Part shown: positions 2,865-35,700 of the stretch, piece by piece
Layout of the letters: every line of letters begins with the position of its first letter
Position numbering within the stretch: the first letter of the stretch is position 1
Assembly (NCBI GenBank): GCA_028279515.1
Contig: JANQNQ010000009.1
Span: forward strand, 194,429-258,428
Direction of reading: 5' to 3'
DNA: 64,000 bases
Source of the DNA: Flavobacteriaceae bacterium
GTDB taxonomy: Bacteria > Bacteroidota > Bacteroidia > Flavobacteriales > Flavobacteriaceae
Position numbers and translations under genes: made by a program
The notes under the pieces: model-generated
Seen by the model: only the letters and a program-made list of their open reading frames with translations
What the model was told of the DNA's origin: nothing
Database searches by the model: none

Positions 2865-4490
2865 ATGTCCATAGATAACTCATTCAAGATCACCTACCCT
2901 CAAAAGACCAACGACCCGACGGATGCAGCATCGATAAGCAAGTTCTTTGCACTTGAGGCCAACGAGATCAAGGAAAAGTTCAATCGATTGGTGACCGAGC
3001 TTATCGGTCTGTTCGGGAACACGAATGCGACTCCGATGGTCGGCGTGTATACTTCGCTTTCTCAATTGAGTGCAGCGTTCCCAACAGGTGCCGGTGGTGC
3101 CTATGCCATCATCGACCCGGGTACGGGATCAGACCCGCAGATCGCGATATACGATACAAACGATAACCAATGGGTCATTGCAGGTGCAAGCGAGCTCATA
3201 ATCTATAGCGCGAACCAAGCCGCATTACCGCCAACTGGAACAGAAAAGAGACTCTATCTCACACTTGACAACTATAGCATCTTCGTATGGCACGATAGCG
3301 ATTGGCATCAGGTAGGAGGAGGGTCAGTGAACCTCTATTCGCAAGAATCAGGGAACACTATCCAATTGAATGGAGCACAATCGAAGGGCTATGGACAGGA
3401 CACACCACTCACAGGTCCATTGGTGATATCAGCAGCGGCTGCAACACCAGGACACGAGGCCTATGTCAACCATAAAGCACCCAATCTAGGCCCTATCGAC
3501 AGTCAGGGGCTCAAGTTATTGACCTATAGCGGTGAGTACGTCCCGAATGTTCTCAATCAGATCTGGTTCAGGTGCCTGAACGATGCCAAGGACATCGGGG
3601 TCAAGTATACACAACCTGATGATGGAGAGCTTTCGGAGTTCTACCTGGACGATGTGAACACCCTGTTCTACATGGGTATCAAGAAGTTGACCTCTGGCGG
3701 TCTGAGCACTGCCTTCAAGCTACATGGTAATTCCGACGAGATACAGTGGAATTCCAATAACGAAATAGCAGCGGACAGCGTCGTGGGAGGAACCACCGTC
3801 GGTGCGCTCACCGGGAACCAACTTGTCGAACGAGGGTATAACACCGCTGGGAACCTTAACACGGACTACCTGCAATCTGGCACATCGGCAATCGCTCCAT
3901 TGATCGTTAGTGGTGGCACCCTGGTCACCAAGAACGGAAAGGTGGCCTTGGACTTCAGCGGAGGGTTCAAGTATATGGAAAAAAGTTTGATATCAGGTAT
4001 GAACGAGTCAGAAGACTACACTTTTTCTGTCGTTTTAGCACCGACAATCGCAGATGGGTCGGATTGGGGACCTATCATGTGTTCAAGGCAGAACAGTGTT
4101 AGTGGAACATCACGTATAGAAATGCGTAGTGACATGCGTGATGCAGCCAACTTAGTGATATTGCAGAACGACTCCAATACTGTGTTTGTGGCCAGTCAAC
4201 CAACGGCACCTAGCAATCCGAACCTCTTCAACACGCTAGATACACGTGTGATCACCTATGTTAAGGCCGGTAAGAAAATAGATGCTTATCTCAATGGGGT
4301 ATTCCAAAGCACCTTTACCTATACAGGAACGTTCCCGAACGAAACATTTGTGATTGGAAGAAGACAGGACTCGAGGGAACTCAATGCCCTCGTACACATG
4401 GTCAAGGTCGTCGGCGAGGCCATTACGGCGGATACCGTCCTCAAATGGGCACAAAGAGATGCAATCGACTGTAACTTCACACTCAATTAG
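2865..4490 (+). CDS. Putative phage receptor-binding/tail fiber-like protein with a C-terminal LamG/concanavalin-like jelly-roll
   Basis: 541 aa. Composition is Gly/Thr/Ser-rich. The C-terminus (TFSVVLAPT...NGKKIDAYLNGV...FVIGRRQD) has the LamG-like pattern. ATGA overlap with the preceding ORF. Confidence 0.4.
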   Translation: MSIDNSFKITYPQKTNDPTDAASISKFFALEANEIKEKFNRLVTELIGLFGNTNATPMVGVYTSLSQLSAAFPTGAGGAYAIIDPGTGSDPQIAIYDTNDNQWVIAGASELIIYSANQAALPPTGTEKRLYLTLDNYSIFVWHDSDWHQVGGGSVNLYSQESGNTIQLNGAQSKGYGQDTPLTGPLVISAAAATPGHEAYVNHKAPNLGPIDSQGLKLLTYSGEYVPNVLNQIWFRCLNDAKDIGVKYTQPDDGELSEFYLDDVNTLFYMGIKKLTSGGLSTAFKLHGNSDEIQWNSNNEIAADSVVGGTTVGALTGNQLVERGYNTAGNLNTDYLQSGTSAIAPLIVSGGTLVTKNGKVALDFSGGFKYMEKSLISGMNESEDYTFSVVLAPTIADGSDWGPIMCSRQNSVSGTSRIEMRSDMRDAANLVILQNDSNTVFVASQPTAPSNPNLFNTLDTRVITYVKAGKKIDAYLNGVFQSTFTYTGTFPNETFVIGRRQDSRELNALVHMVKVVGEAITADTVLKWAQRDAIDCNFTLN

Positions 4491-4492
4491 AT

Positions 4493-5782
4493 ATGTCATT
4501 CTTCGATATCATAGACGCTGGAGCAACGGTACAGGACCCGACCGATGTTAACGTTTGGCATACAGGGTCGATTGAGATCCCTGACCTTTTACAGATCGGA
4601 TGGCAGGGCGGGCTCATAGATCCGAATGGACTCTACTTCAACGGAAAGACCTATGCAACAGGGGTCCAGACCAACAACATCGCAGGCCAGAGGAACAGGG
4701 TGGTGATCGTTCAATACGACGGAGCCACCCCCACGGTCCCGCCAATATATGCCTTTGTCGGGAGTGGTACGGACGGCCAGGACACGTTGAACCATCCTCG
4801 GCCTGCGATGTTGATCGACCCATCAGGCTACATTTGGATCTATCAGACCACCATCCACCAAACCCCCATTAGGGTCTGGAAAAGCGACAACCCTGAGGAC
4901 ATCAGCTCCTTCACATTGGTACATACGATCCCAGAGATCAATGGACTCAACTACGGATATCCGAAACCCATCCTGCAGCCTGATGGCAGGGTGTTCATTC
5001 TGGTGAGAAGCAACGACGGTGTGGGGCCAGCAGACCTTTACAACACCTTGATATTGAAGTCCACTGACGCGACACAGACCTCTTGGACGGCTCAGCCGAT
5101 CGCCGATGCAGAGCATGAGACCACGGGTAACAGGCACTACCACAATGTCTTCAGGAAATACGGCACCAACACGGTACAGATGTTCGGTACCAGTTTTCGT
5201 GCATCAGGGACCAACACATATTGGAAGCATGCCATCACCAAGACCACACTCGGTAACTATACGACCTACAGCAATGCTGCAGGGACATTCTCTAAGGACG
5301 TCGACCTTAACGGTATGATCAATGACAGCGAGATGAACGGTAATTTCGTTGTCAATTCTGCAAGCCAAAGCACCATCGAACTCGCTAGGATGGCAGGTAT
5401 CCAAGTGGACGATACCGCTTACACGTATGTCCTGAAAGAGGGCGCGTTCGGGGAGTTCATGAAGGTATCCAATACAGGTGTCGTCACCAAGGCCGATGTC
5501 CAGATCCCAAATGTGCTTACCGAGAACCAAGCGAACCTCTGTCAGCTTTGGTACAATGGCAATGACATCATCGGGGCGATCAGAAGGACGATCGGGCCGA
5601 AGACCTTCGATACCATATTCCGACTTGACAAGACCACCTTGGCCCAGACCACGATCGAGGACGTCCCACCTCGAATTGAGATGCCTCAGAACTACGACCA
5701 GATCCCGGTTGGGGGATGGTATATGCAACATCTCACCTTGAACGGTGTATTTCATTGGAAGGCAACTCAGAAGATTTATTAA
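4493..5782 (+). CDS. Putative phage structural protein (BNR/sialidase-like beta-propeller suspected)
   Basis: 429 aa. BNR-like S-x-D-x-x-x-T-S-W segment (STDATQTSW). Translationally coupled to the upstream fiber-like gene. Confidence 0.35.
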   Translation: MSFFDIIDAGATVQDPTDVNVWHTGSIEIPDLLQIGWQGGLIDPNGLYFNGKTYATGVQTNNIAGQRNRVVIVQYDGATPTVPPIYAFVGSGTDGQDTLNHPRPAMLIDPSGYIWIYQTTIHQTPIRVWKSDNPEDISSFTLVHTIPEINGLNYGYPKPILQPDGRVFILVRSNDGVGPADLYNTLILKSTDATQTSWTAQPIADAEHETTGNRHYHNVFRKYGTNTVQMFGTSFRASGTNTYWKHAITKTTLGNYTTYSNAAGTFSKDVDLNGMINDSEMNGNFVVNSASQSTIELARMAGIQVDDTAYTYVLKEGAFGEFMKVSNTGVVTKADVQIPNVLTENQANLCQLWYNGNDIIGAIRRTIGPKTFDTIFRLDKTTLAQTTIEDVPPRIEMPQNYDQIPVGGWYMQHLTLNGVFHWKATQKIY

Positions 5783-28760: not shown

Positions 28761-29141
28761 ATGGGCTTACATCTTAATGCAAATTTAGACCTTGGGGGGA
28801 AGAAATTCCACATCGAACTGGCATTGGTTCAGTTCAAAGAAGGCGATGTGTTTATTATTTATTCACCAGCCTTAGACCTATCAGGTTCCGGGTATTCTGA
28901 AAAAGAGGCAAGAGATTCATTTTCAATTGCTCTTGAAGAATTTGTTAGATATACTAATAATAAGAAAACCCTGAATAAAGTCTTGAAAGACCTTGGTTGG
29001 CAAGTACTTGGTTCTAATAAGAAGCCAAAGTTTACCCCACCGAAAGATTCTGATTTGATTGCATCCAACCCCTTGTACAGTGATATTATTAATAGTAAGA
29101 ATTACAGCGTATCAAGGGAAGATATAGCTATTCCGGTTTAA
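28761..29141 (+). CDS. HicB-like antitoxin-fold protein
   Basis: The segment FIIYSPALDLSGSGYSEKEARDSFSIALEEFVRY matches the HicB/UPF0150 core. It has its own TATATTTG box at 28734-28741. Confidence 0.45.
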   Translation: MGLHLNANLDLGGKKFHIELALVQFKEGDVFIIYSPALDLSGSGYSEKEARDSFSIALEEFVRYTNNKKTLNKVLKDLGWQVLGSNKKPKFTPPKDSDLIASNPLYSDIINSKNYSVSREDIAIPV

Positions 29142-29146
29142 TTTAA

Positions 29147-29377
29147 ATGTCTACCAAGCATCTACGAAACATACCGCTAAAACTTTATAGGGATTTTCTC
29201 GATGATAAAGGATGTAAATGCACAAGGACCAAAGGAGGTCATGAGCACTGGACAAGAAGTGACCTAGATAGGCCGATAACCGTGCAAACTCATGTCGACC
29301 CTGTCCCAGAGTTTATTATTAGGCAAGGTCTTCGGCAGTTAGGTGTTTCGAAAAAGGAATTTCTTGACTGGATTTAA
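29147..29377 (+). CDS. HicA-like mRNA-interferase toxin
   Basis: 76 aa. The KGGHEHWTR...ITVQTH...IIRQGLRQLGV pattern matches the HicA/YcfA family. Confidence 0.55.
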   Translation: MSTKHLRNIPLKLYRDFLDDKGCKCTRTKGGHEHWTRSDLDRPITVQTHVDPVPEFIIRQGLRQLGVSKKEFLDWI

Positions 29378-30564
29378 ATGTCATCAAGATTGTTGATGTC
29401 TTGCTCCATAAGACCGTCAACGATATGAACGTACACCATTGTCTGTTTTATCTCACTGTGACCAAGCAAGCGTTGTAATTTCACCACATTGCCACCTTTA
29501 AGTAAATAGTTGGTAGCAAAAGTATGTCTGCTTACATGAAAGGTCAGTTTCTGCTTAATTCCGCAGACCTTAGCAATCTCTTTTAACATCCTATTTATAT
29601 GAACGCCAGTAAATTCTCCATTGAATAAAGGGTCCTGCTTGTTCAGGAACGATCTGGCCTTGCTAGTCAACGGTATGCGCTGTAATTTATAGGTCTTCTT
29701 GGAGGTCAAAACTAAATGGTCGCCGATAATGTTGTCCTCATTGATTCTCAGCGAGTCACTTATTCTTATACCTGTCCAACAACTAAAGAGGAACCTTTTT
29801 AGTACCGCTAGGTGAGTAGGATTAACAAAATCACTTTCGGAATATTTGACCAACCGGGAAACTTCTTCTGGCATTAGGAAGATCGGCCGTGGTTTGAAGG
29901 CCTCTACCTTGATCTTGTCGTATGTGATACCTGACATTATTCCTTGATCATTGGCTATGTGCAGGAATTTTTTGAAGGTCTTCATCATGCTTGTAATTGT
30001 ATTTGGTGCGTTCTTGAGCTCGTGCTTCATATAGGCTCGAAGATCTCGTATAAAATCATGGTCGATCTCGTGGAAGGGGATGCTTTCCCTGTAATTACGC
30101 AATTTGGTAAATACTGACCTCTGCTGTCTATAGGTCTTTGGGTCAAGGCGGTCTCTTTCCTTGGAAAGTGCATTCTCGAAGAACTTGATAAAATCGAGAT
30201 GGGCTGTTGGATTCTCAAGCTCAAAGATCAGTTGCTTCAGTGAAAGCATGCGCTTTGATAGCCTGTATGTTACTTCCACCCGATTGATGTCGGCCAACTT
30301 TTGCTCAATTATCAAGTTATGGTCCACATAATTTTCGGCTCCCTTCCTTACCCGGCCCTCTACATCATCAAAGTCTTTTGGGCGCACGTAGATGTCCAAG
30401 TTCAATCTCATTAGTTTCTTCTGGTAGAGCTGTATGTAGACCATACACTTTCCGTCCTTTCTGATGTGGTCCTTTCTTAGTCGGACTTTGAGTCTAATTT
30501 TACCGATCATGATTTCTGGTAAATTCTCTGGTAAAAAAACTGCTGTTTCACGCGTATACCCCAT
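29374..30564 (-). CDS. Tyrosine-type site-specific integrase (the likely start is the ATG at 30510: MIGKIRLKV...)
   Basis: The C-terminal catalytic region HVSRHTFATNYLL...LLGHSEIKQTMVYVHI carries the R..H..R..Y signature. The N-terminal arm domain is typical of Bacteroidetes integrases. Confidence 0.9.
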   Translation of the reverse strand: MGYTRETAVFLPENLPEIMIGKIRLKVRLRKDHIRKDGKCMVYIQLYQKKLMRLNLDIYVRPKDFDDVEGRVRKGAENYVDHNLIIEQKLADINRVEVTYRLSKRMLSLKQLIFELENPTAHLDFIKFFENALSKERDRLDPKTYRQQRSVFTKLRNYRESIPFHEIDHDFIRDLRAYMKHELKNAPNTITSMMKTFKKFLHIANDQGIMSGITYDKIKVEAFKPRPIFLMPEEVSRLVKYSESDFVNPTHLAVLKRFLFSCWTGIRISDSLRINEDNIIGDHLVLTSKKTYKLQRIPLTSKARSFLNKQDPLFNGEFTGVHINRMLKEIAKVCGIKQKLTFHVSRHTFATNYLLKGGNVVKLQRLLGHSEIKQTMVYVHIVDGLMEQDINNLDDI

Positions 30565-30602
30565 GGCTTGTCGTTTTTTTGAATGCCCCCTAAATGCAGG
30601 CA

Positions 30603-30639
30603 GGCCGCGACTTTTAGAAATTTTCTAAAAATCGCGGCC
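30603..30639. repeat. Near-perfect 18-bp inverted repeat between the integrase and the tRNA-like gene (att/Int-binding candidate)
   Basis: GGCCGCGACTTTTAGAAA t TTTCTAAAAATCGCGGCC, with one mismatch. Confidence 0.5.
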
Positions 30640-30658
30640 GTTATTAAACCTAGTTTTG

Positions 30659-30732
30659 TGACCTCGGCAGGATTCAAACCTGCAACCTCTTGAGCCGTAA
30701 TCAAGTGCACTATTCAGTTATGCTACGAGGCC
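30659..30732 (-). tRNA. tRNA-Arg(ACG)-like gene. It is atypical, lacking G18/G19 and C56.
   Basis: Manual cloverleaf: acceptor GGCCTCG/CGAGGTC (one G-U); D-stem GCAT/GTGC; anticodon stem CTTGA/TCAAG; loop TTACGGC; T-stem GCAGG/CCTGC; T-loop TTTGAAT. CCA is not encoded. Confidence 0.5.
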
Positions 30733-30982
30733 AATATGTAAATGGATTTTATGACGAATCCTAACGTTTTCTATTTCAATGACCTGTTGCAATCTCTTGT
30801 GCCGTAATCAAGGCACCTCTCCGTGTGAAACCGGATATTCAGTTATGCTACGAGGCCAATATGTAAATGGATTTTATAACGAATCCTAACGTTTTCTTTT
30901 TCAATGACCTGTCGCAATCTCTTGTGCCGTAATCAAGGCACCTCTCCGTGTGGAACCGGATATTCAGTTATGCTACGAGGCC
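30733..30982. repeat. Two tandem 125-bp units, each ending in a degenerate copy of the tRNA 5' half (pseudo-tRNA fragment array)
   Basis: Units 30733-30857 and 30858-30982 are ~97% identical. CAGTTATGCTACGAGGCC recurs at 30711-30732, 30836-30857 and 30961-30982. Confidence 0.7.
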
Positions 30983-31325
30983 AGTATATCATTTGGCAGC
31001 TTGCCTACCAACACAATCGCAAACTATCTCGCGAAAGCGGATGCAAATATAATTCATTCTTCAACAATCGACAAAGCAAAAAAACAAAAAAATTAAAGCG
31101 TTTTGTTAATCAATTGCTTTTGTGGTTACAAAGTAACGCCATCCAATGACCGCTAACTGCAGTTTGGACGCTTTTGCGAGGTCCAAACGCTTTTTGGTAT
31201 ACGATGGAAGCAACACTTTGTTTAGCTTCGCTAGCGCCTTAAAAAACTGTTTTTTCATGGTATAAGCTTCTACTACAAAGATAGTGCAAAAAAATACTCG
31301 TCGTACGACGAGTATTTAACAAGGG

Positions 31326-33009: not shown

Positions 33010-35700
33010 TTACTTGTCCTTTTTTGTTGTAATAACTAAGACGCCATTTTCACCTTTTTTGCCGTACAGTTTTTTGGCCGAAGCACCTTTTAGTACGTTG
33101 ATAGATTCGATCTTGTTTGTGTCTAGCTTTTTTAGCTTCTTATATGGAACCTCTTTTCCGTCGATAATGATCAATGGTTTTTCTCCACCAGTTTCAATTT
33201 GAAGTCCTTCGTCATCGTCACTAGAGTGAATATAGATTCTGCCTTGTTGATAGTCGTCATCATCCACGCTAATTTTAAAAGTTGAAGATTGCCCTTCCGC
33301 CTTTATATGATGCCCGTCTTTGGTCTCTTTGATTCGAATCACGTTTTGGCCGTTTTCATCCTGAGTCTCCACAACGTGTACATCCATCTTCTTTAATTCG
33401 TCACGGGTCACCACTTTTCCGTTTACCATGATCTTTTCCTCACCATCGGCTTTAATGATCTCGATCGAATGAACGTCACCATCGTCATGACCAGATTGGG
33501 CATGAACCTTGCCTTTCACCTTATAATAGGAGTTGCTACCCTGGCCACTTGCACTACCGCTGTAGTTGTAGTGAGAATGTGGTTGCCCTCCCGAGTTGAT
33601 ACTTAAAAAATTGGCCTCTTCGTCAAAACGAATGTAAATCGTCTCGATAGGTTGTCCGTCGCCATCGATTGTCGATTTGTTGGTGGTGGTATTTCCATCA
33701 CGTTTTACTTTGACCTCGATCGAGATTCTGATGATTTCGTCATTGTCATTGTAAGCAAGCTTTGAGTAGCTAAACGAAACATCCTTCTTCTTTAGCTCAC
33801 GCTGTATGTCTTTTAATTTTTCTTCGGAAGTGTTCTTGTCGATGATCACTTCGATATTACCAGCGACCACTCCGTTGTCAAAAGACGTCTTGGTCACTTT
33901 AAGGGTATTAGCTTGAAGATATTTCATTGGATCCAACGGCTCATCATCCTTGCGGATCTCGAAGTGAAGATGCGGTCCGTTGGCCAATCCGGTATTTCCA
34001 ACATGGCCAATCAGATCGCGTGATGTTACCATATCACCTTCTTTAACAACATAATCCTTTAAATGATTGTAATGGGTCGAATATCCATTCTTGTGAAGGA
34101 TCTGGACCGAATTTCCATATTTACCATTCATTTCGGCCTGAACAACCTTGCCCGAAGCCGAAGCCATAACGGCAGTGCCTTTCGGAGCAACAAAATCAAC
34201 GCCATTGTGAAACTTCTCTCCGCTTCCTTTAGGGTCTTTGAGCCTACCGAAGGTTGAGCTTACTTTTTTTAGCTTTGACGGACTGATTGGACTCTTGAAC
34301 GTCGGAACTTGCTCAGCCTCGCTTTTTGTTTCGGGCGTTTCTGGTGCTTCTGGTGCTTCAGTTGTTTCAAGCGTCTCATGCGTTTCGTGCGATTCATGAG
34401 TTTCAGGCGTATCCGGAACTTCTGGAGTGATGTCCTGAATCGGAGCCTCTTCCTTTACATCAACATACACCATGGCATTATCTACCCGAAAACTGTCGCC
34501 ACCATCCAGATCATCAGCATAAAACTGCATGGTGTCCTCATTGAACCAAAGGTTCATGGCAGGTATTACTTTTGTTTGATTGCCTTTAAAGGTGAAGTTT
34601 TTGTCAAACAATTCGTGACCTGCGAACTTGGTAGCTACAGAAAGGTCTGTGAGCTTACCTTCGGTATTTCGCTTTCGGTCTGTGAGTTTTAATTCAAAAC
34701 CGTCGATGCGCTCGTTGAAGTATTGTTCGATATCATTGAGTTCAACGTTTGTGGTAGTACCATCTATGGTGAATGACTTGATCTCATTTACTTTATACAC
34801 TTCGTTTACGTTGAAACTAAATAGGAAGAGTGCCAGTGCCGGAAGCACAATCCCAAATTTCCATAAGTGCCTTCTTTTGGAGGCTTTTTGATTTAACATA
34901 ACTATTCGTTTTTTGATTAATGAATTGAAAAAATTATTTGTGATTGATGTGCAGTATGGCTGCAATGAAACCTTTAATAAGGTGTGTTGATATTGTTTTG
35001 ACGAATCGATGCCTTGTACGGCCTGATTATCGGCGATAAACTCTAGGTTTTGCTGAATTGATTTTTTGTAAAACCAAGCTACCGGGTTGATCCATTGAAA
35101 GATGAAGGCCAATTCGGCAATAATGATATCGATCGAGTGCCATTGCTTGCAATGTACTTTCTCATGCTCTAAGATTGTCTTAAGTTCTTCTTCGGTATAT
35201 AATGATGGGTTGTATATGATATAGTTGAAAAACGAAAACGGGGAGAGCTCTTGTTTTGTGATCACATGTTTGTATTGTGAGTCTCGCTTTGAGGTGTGAG
35301 CGTTAAAAAGTTTTATAAGAGAAACACACTGAAGCAAGAATCGAATGCTCAAAATGACCACCCCAGCCAAGTATATGAACAACCCCACTTGCCACCAATC
35401 TATGGTAAATGAAGGGTCTGAAATGATCGGTTGACTTGTGAATGTTTCCGCAATTTGTGTGGGCTGACTCAGACCAGACACGGTTTCCTGTGCATACGGA
35501 ACCACTTTAATGAGTGGGTCAACATAGATGTATTTGGTGAAGATCACGAAAGGCAGCAACAGTGCGGCCAATATTCCGCCTAACAAAAAGTGACGATTAC
35601 CAGAGAAAAAGGTCTCTCTTTTAAGGAATAATTGATAACCAAAAAAGAAGATCGCTAGTACCGCGGCAGATTTTAAAAGGTATATGATAAAGGCTTCCAT
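33010..35700 (-). CDS. BlaR1-family M56 peptidase sensor fused to an M23 (LytM) peptidase domain and a TonB-like C-terminus
   Basis: N-terminal 4-TM region with an HEKVH zinc motif. Acidic PETxET linker repeats. M23 signature HNGVDF...GHVGNTGLANGPHLHFEI. 896 aa. TAATG coupling with the upstream repressor gene. Confidence 0.75.
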   Translation of the reverse strand: MEAFIIYLLKSAAVLAIFFFGYQLFLKRETFFSGNRHFLLGGILAALLLPFVIFTKYIYVDPLIKVVPYAQETVSGLSQPTQIAETFTSQPIISDPSFTIDWWQVGLFIYLAGVVILSIRFLLQCVSLIKLFNAHTSKRDSQYKHVITKQELSPFSFFNYIIYNPSLYTEEELKTILEHEKVHCKQWHSIDIIIAELAFIFQWINPVAWFYKKSIQQNLEFIADNQAVQGIDSSKQYQHTLLKVSLQPYCTSITNNFFNSLIKKRIVMLNQKASKRRHLWKFGIVLPALALFLFSFNVNEVYKVNEIKSFTIDGTTTNVELNDIEQYFNERIDGFELKLTDRKRNTEGKLTDLSVATKFAGHELFDKNFTFKGNQTKVIPAMNLWFNEDTMQFYADDLDGGDSFRVDNAMVYVDVKEEAPIQDITPEVPDTPETHESHETHETLETTEAPEAPETPETKSEAEQVPTFKSPISPSKLKKVSSTFGRLKDPKGSGEKFHNGVDFVAPKGTAVMASASGKVVQAEMNGKYGNSVQILHKNGYSTHYNHLKDYVVKEGDMVTSRDLIGHVGNTGLANGPHLHFEIRKDDEPLDPMKYLQANTLKVTKTSFDNGVVAGNIEVIIDKNTSEEKLKDIQRELKKKDVSFSYSKLAYNDNDEIIRISIEVKVKRDGNTTTNKSTIDGDGQPIETIYIRFDEEANFLSINSGGQPHSHYNYSGSASGQGSNSYYKVKGKVHAQSGHDDGDVHSIEIIKADGEEKIMVNGKVVTRDELKKMDVHVVETQDENGQNVIRIKETKDGHHIKAEGQSSTFKISVDDDDYQQGRIYIHSSDDDEGLQIETGGEKPLIIIDGKEVPYKKLKKLDTNKIESINVLKGASAKKLYGKKGENGVLVITTKKDK

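Follow-up and report, generated by a model that had tools for sequence, protein, structure and literature searches.

What are the repeated sequences that separate a tRNA gene from its promoter in a flavobacterial genome, and do they owe anything to the prophage on the other side of the gene? The 64-kb stretch of Flavobacteriaceae DNA analyzed here (the window) contains a tRNA-Arg(ACG) gene preceded by a tandem array of two 125-bp units, which we call U2 and U3, each harboring a pseudo-tRNA. As the tRNA and the units lie on the minus strand, 'upstream' means higher coordinates throughout; reading from high to low coordinates, the order is promoter box, leader, U3, spacer, U2, spacer, tRNA, palindrome and prophage integrase (Table 1). 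We conclude that the units most likely are non-functional tRNA-derived DNA, and we tentatively propose that they represent relics, devoid of an open reading frame (ORF), of a cassette that elsewhere places a predicted GIY-YIG nuclease gene in front of the same tRNA. For the window itself the result is mainly a correction of an earlier note on this DNA, and the main value of the repeat is as a pointer to an undescribed nuclease-pseudo-tRNA cassette.

Tandem Repeats Finder places the array at 30711-30987 (period 125, 2.2 copies, 96% matches, score 519), and a repeat search recovers two full 125-nt copies of 97% identity together with a 27-nt block, ATAYTGGCCTCGTAGCATAACTGAATA, that contains the tRNA 5' end and is present in three copies, congruent with the two tandem units of approximately 97% identity described in the earlier note. 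Almost the entire tRNA is represented, in degenerate form, in each unit. Both retain its first 22 nt unaltered (22/22), followed, after GAATA, by a 19-nt insert, TCCGGTT(T/C)CACACGGAGAG, between A21 and G22, the insert-bearing stretch reading GAATATCCGG...CGGAGAGGTGCC. Beyond the insert come the 3' strand of the D stem plus the anticodon arm, a stretch that has lost A26 and shows one altered stem base, then the variable region, and finally TTGCAACAGGTCA at the place where the T arm and the acceptor 3' strand would be. The tRNA 5' half with a 19-nt insertion, as previously described, is therefore present, but the units are not limited to it, as the similarity extends across anticodon arm and variable region up to AGGTCA, a match to the 3' end of the tRNA. 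Aligned to the tRNA, the units show no change in the 5' 27 nt and three indels plus several substitutions beyond, and U2 and U3 differ from one another at four positions. ARAGORN and Rfam (E up to 10) call neither unit, so that, contrary to a functional tandem of tRNAs, only the last copy is recognized by the scanners; Rfam families other than tRNA yield chance-level matches only. Two ORFs overlapping the array, at 30904-31149 (+) and 30507-30710 (-), have no Pfam match and were treated as spurious.

A box of the TATATTTG type lies directly 5' of tRNA-Arg(ACG) in 13 related loci, as TATATTTGCAyCCGC, and we take it, by the TAnnTTTG consensus, to be a Bacteroidota-type -7 promoter box; in the window, the box at 31044-31051 overlaps a sigma-70-like match. 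The distance from box to tRNA is about 12 nt in most relatives, with an 85-nt leader in some. In the window, the leader between box and gene now amounts to about 310 nt and holds both 125-bp units.

The tRNA gene appears to be intact. It is the sole tRNA called by ARAGORN in the whole window (tRNA-Arg(acg), 30658-30732, minus strand), and the RF00005 match at 30659-30732 reaches 58.9 bits against a gathering score of 29 (E=4.9e-12). The ACG-bearing cloverleaf proposed earlier is thus accepted rather than rejected by a tRNA scanner; it is also the minimum free energy (MFE) fold of the tRNA and scores as a bacterial elongator tRNA under the covariance model. Read from the sequence with standard tRNA numbering, the D loop, AACUGAAUA, lacks GG and aligns to the canonical AGCUGGAUA as A14 A15 C16 U17 G18 A19 A20 U20a A21, while the T loop, UUUGAAU, carries a T at position 56. 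Hence, where the earlier note reported the loss of both G18 and G19, only G19 is changed, G18 and A20 being retained in this alignment, and its reading of T in place of C56 is correct. The alteration between the D and T loops is indeed correlated, but to call it a loss is misleading: instead of the usual G18/G19 with psi55/C56, positions 19 and 56 are occupied by A and U, and a predicted A19-U56 pair replaces G19-C56 just as A15-U48 replaces G15-C48.

Nor is the gene atypical. Scanning one genome per species with the tRNA 5' 22-mer returned at least 119 loci in Flavobacteriaceae, Cytophagales and relatives, and among the loci listed the identical 74-nt tRNA occurs in more than 75 species-representative genomes. 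ARAGORN called 130 tRNA-Arg(ACG) genes with 29 distinct sequences in all fetched loci, and in every one of the 29 the T loop contains TTTRA and the D loop lacks GG, the loops AACUGAAUA and UUUGAAU as well as A19-U56 and A15-U48 being kept throughout; the variants carry paired changes in the anticodon and T stems. The few other tRNAs of these loci (Cys, Glu, Gly, Val) are canonical. Judged by its sequence, this is the ordinary tRNA-Arg(ACG) gene of its lineage, with A19-U56 as a compensatory lineage variant and no defect, and it is predicted to be functional under either of the two leading readings of the array. In the literature searched, an incomplete set, no description of an A19-U56 tRNA-Arg was found. 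In this lineage, the nearly universal elbow pair G19-C56 has been exchanged for A19-U56 throughout, along with the A15-U48 Levitt pair, in a single tRNA; this represents a natural experiment in tertiary structure and may also bear on how T-loop-reading enzymes or nucleases recognize the tRNA.

Among the explanations offered in the earlier note, a tRNA-derived repeat element comes closest to what was found, as the architecture of the units is shared with a family of GIY-YIG cassettes at the same tRNA, defined here from the loci L123-L127 and L138-L144. A metagenome scan with a pattern of tRNA-Arg 5' parts and a D-loop insert, outside which the window unit falls as A26 is missing, returned five contigs (L123-L127). 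In these, the native promoter is followed by a pseudo-tRNA, about 20 nt, an 86-codon ORF and the intact tRNA, the pseudo-tRNA consisting of the 5' 22 nt, a palindromic insert of 20-21 nt, CCGTGCCTG(A)CGGCAGGCAGG, after GAATA, and GTGC through AGAGG. The ORF product is a GIY-YIG domain (PF01541, E=3.4e-17), with UPF0213 and the SLX1 nuclease domain as its nearest solved relatives (1zg2, E=1.9e-6) and no NCBIfam model. Cassette ORFs measure 80-86 aa, and the stop codon is located inside the tRNA 5' end, which thereby encodes the end of the protein (...NNWPRSITE* = TGG CCT CGT AGC ATA ACT GAA TAG). A homologue search yielded 294 small Bacteroidota proteins (79-86 aa). The translated tRNA 5' end terminates 83 of the best 120 homologues, in three frames (...WPRSITE, ...LAS, ...SWRN, ...WSRSSAG), and read-through of the GC palindrome is seen in 10 of the same 120 (...YRACGRQGA, ...YLPAGRQGA).

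The cassette is polymorphic for presence and absence at syntenic loci. In L141-L143 it lies behind an 85-nt leader identical to that before the bare tRNA in L134. In the Maribacter/Croceivirga-like L138-L140 it is found beside a 50-aa ORF and Pribosyltran, the same locus being bare in L128, and here two hairpin inserts are present, TCCGCCGCAGGCGGACAGG after A15 and CGAGCCCGACCCTGTCGGGG after A21. Two cassettes stand in tandem in L125. In L144, whose lineage has a canonical D loop, the sequence GGATA[CCTGCCTGCCGGCAGGCAGG]GAGC is present. There is likewise a tandem array in L144; its first unit, deprived of the inner part of the ORF, is exactly 125 nt long, and full units of 298 nt come after it. 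Inserts at A21/G22 occur in three cassette lineages with three different sequences, all of 19-21 nt; the cassette inserts fold as hairpins of 6-8 bp (-5.7 to -8.0 kcal/mol), and disruptive changes accumulate in the cassette pseudo-tRNAs. We found no description of a GIY-YIG gene linked to a tRNA in Bacteroidota in the same set of literature. As a separate observation, several database proteins are artefactual ORF extensions through pseudo-tRNAs and the GC palindromes of these (P0121, P0164, P0170, P0183, P0191, P0193, P0197, P0205, P0220 and P0236; motifs YLPAGRQGA, YRACGRQGA and SPTLSGRI). Annotation pipelines will miss such pseudo-tRNAs and mis-call ORFs through them, as in P0121, P0164, P0197 and P0220.

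Set against these cassettes, the window units occupy the syntenic locus and the same position between leader and tRNA, begin with the exact 5' 22 nt, have no T arm, carry their insert at the A21/G22 junction and are arranged in tandem, with a unit size equal to that of the ORF-less L144 unit. The order in the window (promoter, leader, U3, U2, tRNA) parallels L141 versus the bare L134 and L138 versus the bare L128. The inserts moreover agree in length and termini, TCCG-GTTTCACA-CGGA-GAG (N8) in the window and TCCG-CCGCAGG-CGGA-CAGG in L138. We favor, at somewhat less than even odds, the view that the units may be ORF-less relics of a tRNA-linked GIY-YIG cassette. This accounts for the insert, the unit size and the tandem form, and lacks a sequence-level link to the nuclease.

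Several observations weigh against a cassette origin. The window insert forms a weak hairpin (4 bp, -2.4 kcal/mol, z=-1.6) and, at 58% GC, is less GC-rich than the cassette inserts. No GIY-YIG sequence was detected by tblastn in the 64-kb window or in the 119 related loci, and the window is therefore at most an ORF-less derivative of the cassette. The window pseudo-tRNA is longer than any cassette pseudo-tRNA, as those stop at about nt 26-46. A comparison of the 47-nt spacer (its sequence also written TTGAAATAGAAAACGTTAGGATTC) with cassette ORF ends gave no significant similarity (shuffle p ~0.07-0.2), although four Flavobacteriaceae cassette tails outscored all 14 native-leader controls against the spacer. 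Likewise, no nuclease protein remnant was recovered from the spacer, the translation of which has stops, with non-significant deletion-derivative, 3'-tail and whole-unit alignments. When nuclease ORFs that run into an insert of the window type were sought, a single, unrelated candidate was obtained. The genome also has no close relative in the protein database through which the history could be followed, the next Band_7 homologue being 80-83% identical. Finally, an alternative MAFFT alignment places a degenerate T loop and 3' end in the spacer, as plain duplication of the tRNA predicts, the spacer stretch GTTAGGATTC..GTCATAAAA being matched to GTTTGAATCC..GGTCACAAAA, which is the T loop plus 3' end of the tRNA.

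If the units do descend from a cassette, the cassette or its pseudo-tRNA part would have been acquired at the tRNA locus, and the nuclease ORF would then have been lost by internal deletion, an event directly visible in L144 and presumed for the window. Unequal recombination between the identical 27-nt blocks could subsequently have doubled the resulting mini-unit. Under either of the two leading readings, the units would at present most likely be co-transcribed with the tRNA from the upstream promoter and removed as RNase P cuts at the tRNA 5' end, presumably without a function of their own. The prophage on the left integrated independently at the tRNA 3' end. The array is, in sum, rare, tRNA-derived and probably inert.

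A more far-reaching version is conceivable, and we hold it with somewhat less confidence: the units may be the first recognized ORF-less miniature of an undescribed selfish element of Bacteroidota, a minimal Slx1/UPF0213-like GIY-YIG gene placed before tRNA-Arg(ACG), translated to a stop inside the tRNA, expressed from the tRNA promoter and accompanied by a pseudo-tRNA, that would spread or amplify through nuclease breaks and recombination by analogy to SegB, with tandem arrays and relics lacking the gene left behind. In such an element, the D-loop hairpin insert would either protect the carrier allele from cleavage or suppress recombination between the tRNA duplicates. SegB of phages T4 and T6 is a free-standing GIY-YIG homing endonuclease in tRNA clusters that recognizes a T-psi-C stem-loop DNA motif (PMC2330249), and its double-strand breaks, together with homologous recombination, lead to tandem amplification of units of tRNA and truncated segB (PMC13096335). 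The likeness lies in a GIY-YIG gene tied to tRNA genes and in the tandem units, paralleled in L125, in L144 with its ORF-deleted unit, and in the window array. SegB is, however, a phage protein with extra DNA-binding parts, whereas the predicted cassette nuclease is chromosomal and an 80-86-aa minimal domain, a bare catalytic domain near UPF0213/SLX1. Unlike SegB, the cassette also includes a hairpin-bearing pseudo-tRNA and an ORF ending inside the tRNA, and the window, unlike a SegB locus, has no nuclease gene. The cassette nuclease belongs to the minimal type of the stand-alone Slx1-like/UPF0213 proteins (YhbQ, BH0048, EF2693), of which the window encodes none. A survey of the GIY-YIG superfamily from 2006 reports no association of stand-alone Slx1-like proteins with tRNA genes or pseudo-tRNAs (PMC1564403). 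If mobile, the cassette would thus be a chromosomal counterpart of the phage SegB system and would provide a first biological context for stand-alone Slx1-like GIY-YIG proteins.

The most serious competitor of the relic cassette does without any cassette: the tRNA and a short flank would have been duplicated in tandem, the upstream copy would have decayed through an insertion in the D loop and a deletion of the T arm, and a second duplication by unequal crossing-over would have followed. We regard this as a possible, less probable origin. Tandem tRNA arrays and pseudogenes are likewise head-to-tail, derived from one tRNA gene and served by one upstream promoter, as exemplified by L059, where four intact tandem tRNA-Arg(ACG) genes are spaced 95-141 nt apart and the last spacer ends in ACATATT, like the window spacer. 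This L059 array (1894-2320, from an Ichthyobacteriaceae metagenome-assembled genome, with spacers of 21-67 nt) has all four of its genes called by ARAGORN. The similarity of the unit to the tRNA 3' end, the MAFFT pairing in the spacer, a weak alignment of leader and spacer (the score reached by 33/3000 shuffles) and the lack of a nuclease gene or detectable remnant in the window are also in agreement with duplication. What sets the window units apart from tandem tRNA arrays, however, is that neither of them is a tRNA, that two large indels are common to both, and that their insert resides at the position that marks the cassettes. Duplication alone turns the shared insert site, length class and TCCG..CGGA termini into coincidence, and it requires very uneven decay along the unit. 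Moreover, among the loci listed, a 125-bp-type array occurs in 0 of about 115 unselected related ones; the same array recurring in related genomes, a scenario raised in the earlier note, was thus not encountered, and simple decay arrays are not common here. A second tRNA 5' end within 800 nt was found, for 129 tRNA-Arg(ACG) genes, only in L059 and the cassette loci. The relic cassette and plain duplication can be combined, in that a cassette might have originated within a pair of tandem tRNAs.

It is improbable that the units are scars of site-specific integration, i.e. secondary or relic attachment (att) sites, possibly from elements carrying tRNA 5' portions. The tRNA is a proven integration hotspot: a prophage is present here, and integrases 50% identical to that of the window adjoin the same tRNA downstream in L040 (Kordia) and L120 (IMG/VR). 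In L079, L127, L138 and L141, one to three relic copies of AATCCTGCCGAGGTCAC, from the tRNA 3' end, are found downstream of the gene, 100-250 nt apart; these probably are remains of earlier integrations, and AATCCTGCCGAGGTCAC is the likely core attachment site of the integrases at this tRNA. Furthermore, L048 (minus strand) and L068 contain a tRNA-Arg 5' fragment ending in the anticodon loop (…CTTGATTACGGCT), not preceded by the usual promoter and directly followed by an ORF taken as an integrase without a domain search, which may represent an element with an anticodon-loop crossover that carries or displaces the 5' fragment. All clear relics are nonetheless 3'-end copies downstream of the tRNA, as are the attL/attR repeats of integrases, which share the hotspot locus but copy the tRNA 3' end and flank the element, whereas the units lie on the upstream side with the 5' end exactly preserved. 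There is no second copy of the tRNA 3' end in the window, a 29-mer over the 3' part occurring once where chance expectation is zero. The earlier note was accordingly right in that the repeats are tRNA-derived and distinct from integrase-type 3'-end duplications. Its link to the integrase hotspot finds no support: the array is on the host side, between promoter and gene and away from the integration site, and the prophage loci L040 and L120 have the native promoter straight before a single tRNA and no array, so that prophages of this family do not account for it. By its position, the array appears unrelated to the prophage. As for a supply or repair of the tRNA by the prophage, the tRNA sequence is invariant across hosts and bears no mark by which such an event would show.

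Equally doubtful is that the units encode a functional tRNA-like RNA, which might lack a T arm and act as a decoy, either for an anticodon nuclease or for an enzyme that modifies tRNA, or might serve as a regulatory leader that sets the output of tRNA-Arg. In favor, both units preserve without change the 5' 22 nt and the sequence of the anticodon loop, CTTGATTACGGC; a T-to-A change combined with the missing A26 gives rise to an additional stem of 5 bp, GUGCC/GGCAC, that would present the former anticodon region; and the units lie inside the predicted transcribed leader. Their folds are nevertheless no better than shuffles (z=-1.4 and -1.6; U2 z=-1.57) and have no Rfam match, there is no conservation or covariation to back a structure as, in scans of IMG/VR and related loci, the unit is found in this genome only, with 0 matches of the unit-specific insert pattern in IMG/VR, and the comparable cassette pseudo-tRNAs gather disruptive changes.

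Least probable is that the repeat or its copy number stems from short-read mis-assembly: the Logan contigs of run SRR20820731 do break at 30923 (inside U3) and 30603 (in the palindrome), leaving 30604-30922 unassembled, but de Bruijn assemblies are expected to break at repeats and palindromes, this independent assembly matches the window without mismatch, its host contig reproduces the leader and the first 60 nt of U3 including the insert and a U3-specific base, and the four differences between U2 and U3 are not expected of a collapsed or artificially expanded repeat, so that we consider the array real and its copy number less firm.

Table 1. Features of the tRNA-Arg(ACG) locus, listed from the prophage side to the promoter.
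Feature	Coordinates	Strand	Basis or remark
Tyrosine integrase of prophage (context)	29374..30564	-	Pfam, PHROG
Palindrome, 37 nt	30603..30639	-	17-18 bp hairpin, prophage side
tRNA-Arg(ACG)	30659..30732	-	ARAGORN, Rfam, cloverleaf MFE fold
AT-rich spacer U2/tRNA, 47 nt, TTGAAATAGAAAACGTTAGGATTCGTCATAAAATCCATTTACATATT	30733..30779	-	Sequence
U2 pseudo-tRNA, 78 nt	30780..30857	-	Tandem Repeats Finder, repeat search, alignment
U2, remainder	30780-30816	-	
U2, 19-nt insert TCCGGTTTCACACGGAGAG	30817-30835	-	
U2, 5' 22 nt	30836-30857	-	
Spacer U3/U2, 47 nt	30858..30904	-	2 differences from other spacer copy
U3 pseudo-tRNA, 78 nt	30905..30982	-	Tandem Repeats Finder, repeat search, alignment
U3, remainder	30905-30941	-	
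U3, insert TCCGGTTCCACACGGAGAG	30942-30960	-	
U3, 5' 22 nt	30961-30982	-	
Leader promoter/U3, 61 nt	30983..31043	-	Sequence
Promoter box TATATTTG	31044..31051	-	Sequence; same box in relatives

Downstream of the tRNA, a gap of 19 nt leads to the palindrome, and the integrase is 95 nt away. The palindrome noted earlier between the tRNA 3' end and the integrase is confirmed, with 18-nt arms and one mismatch. As RNA in the tRNA sense the mismatch becomes a G-U pair and the hairpin reaches -29.1 kcal/mol (z=-7.35), with -24.3 kcal/mol for the opposite strand. A 20-bp hairpin of unrelated sequence is present at the equivalent place after the tRNA in L120, with its best fold also in the tRNA sense, and both hairpins precede a TTTAGGGG.ATTC.AAAA motif. 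The hairpin has the appearance of a feature conserved among these prophages; we infer that it may shield the integrase gene from tRNA read-through, or it may be a recombination feature.

The sequence to the left of 30600 is a Bacteroidota prophage that reaches the start of the window, its far end lying outside. The integrase contains Phage_integrase, Phage_int_SAM_5 and Arm-DNA-bind_5 domains (Pfam) and is annotated as integrase in PHROG; a tail tape-measure-like protein, a BACON-domain protein and a HicA-like toxin are also encoded. Two IMG/VR pattern scans for the far prophage end (attR) gave no match. The HicA-like ORF (76 aa, Pfam score under the curated cutoff) follows a 126-aa ORF without a family match at 28761-29377, and these two, flanked by the tail genes and the integrase gene, could form a toxin-antitoxin pair of the prophage. 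Exact-protein look-ups of the prophage ORFs at 660-1472, 2865-4490 and 4493-5782 returned no record; for the integrase and the tail genes, which lie on the same Logan contig, protein records do exist, and the missing ones may reflect an index gap.

To the right of the array, the host genes encode a 50-aa ORF, an SPFH/Band_7 protein, a BlaR1-M56/M23 protein, an Na/Ca exchanger and glutamine synthetase, a syntenic order being found in Aquimarina, Muricauda/Flagellimonas and others ahead of a single tRNA-Arg(ACG). The 50-aa ORF (31106-31258, minus strand), placed after the Band_7 gene, has no Pfam match, and an ORF of 50-51 aa is called at the matching place in Muricauda, Maribacter-like and other relatives (L128, L138, L141). 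The protein encoded at 33010-35700 (minus strand, 896 aa) combines a BlaR1-type peptidase M56 with a peptidase M23 and a weak C-terminal Plug match, an unusual fusion.

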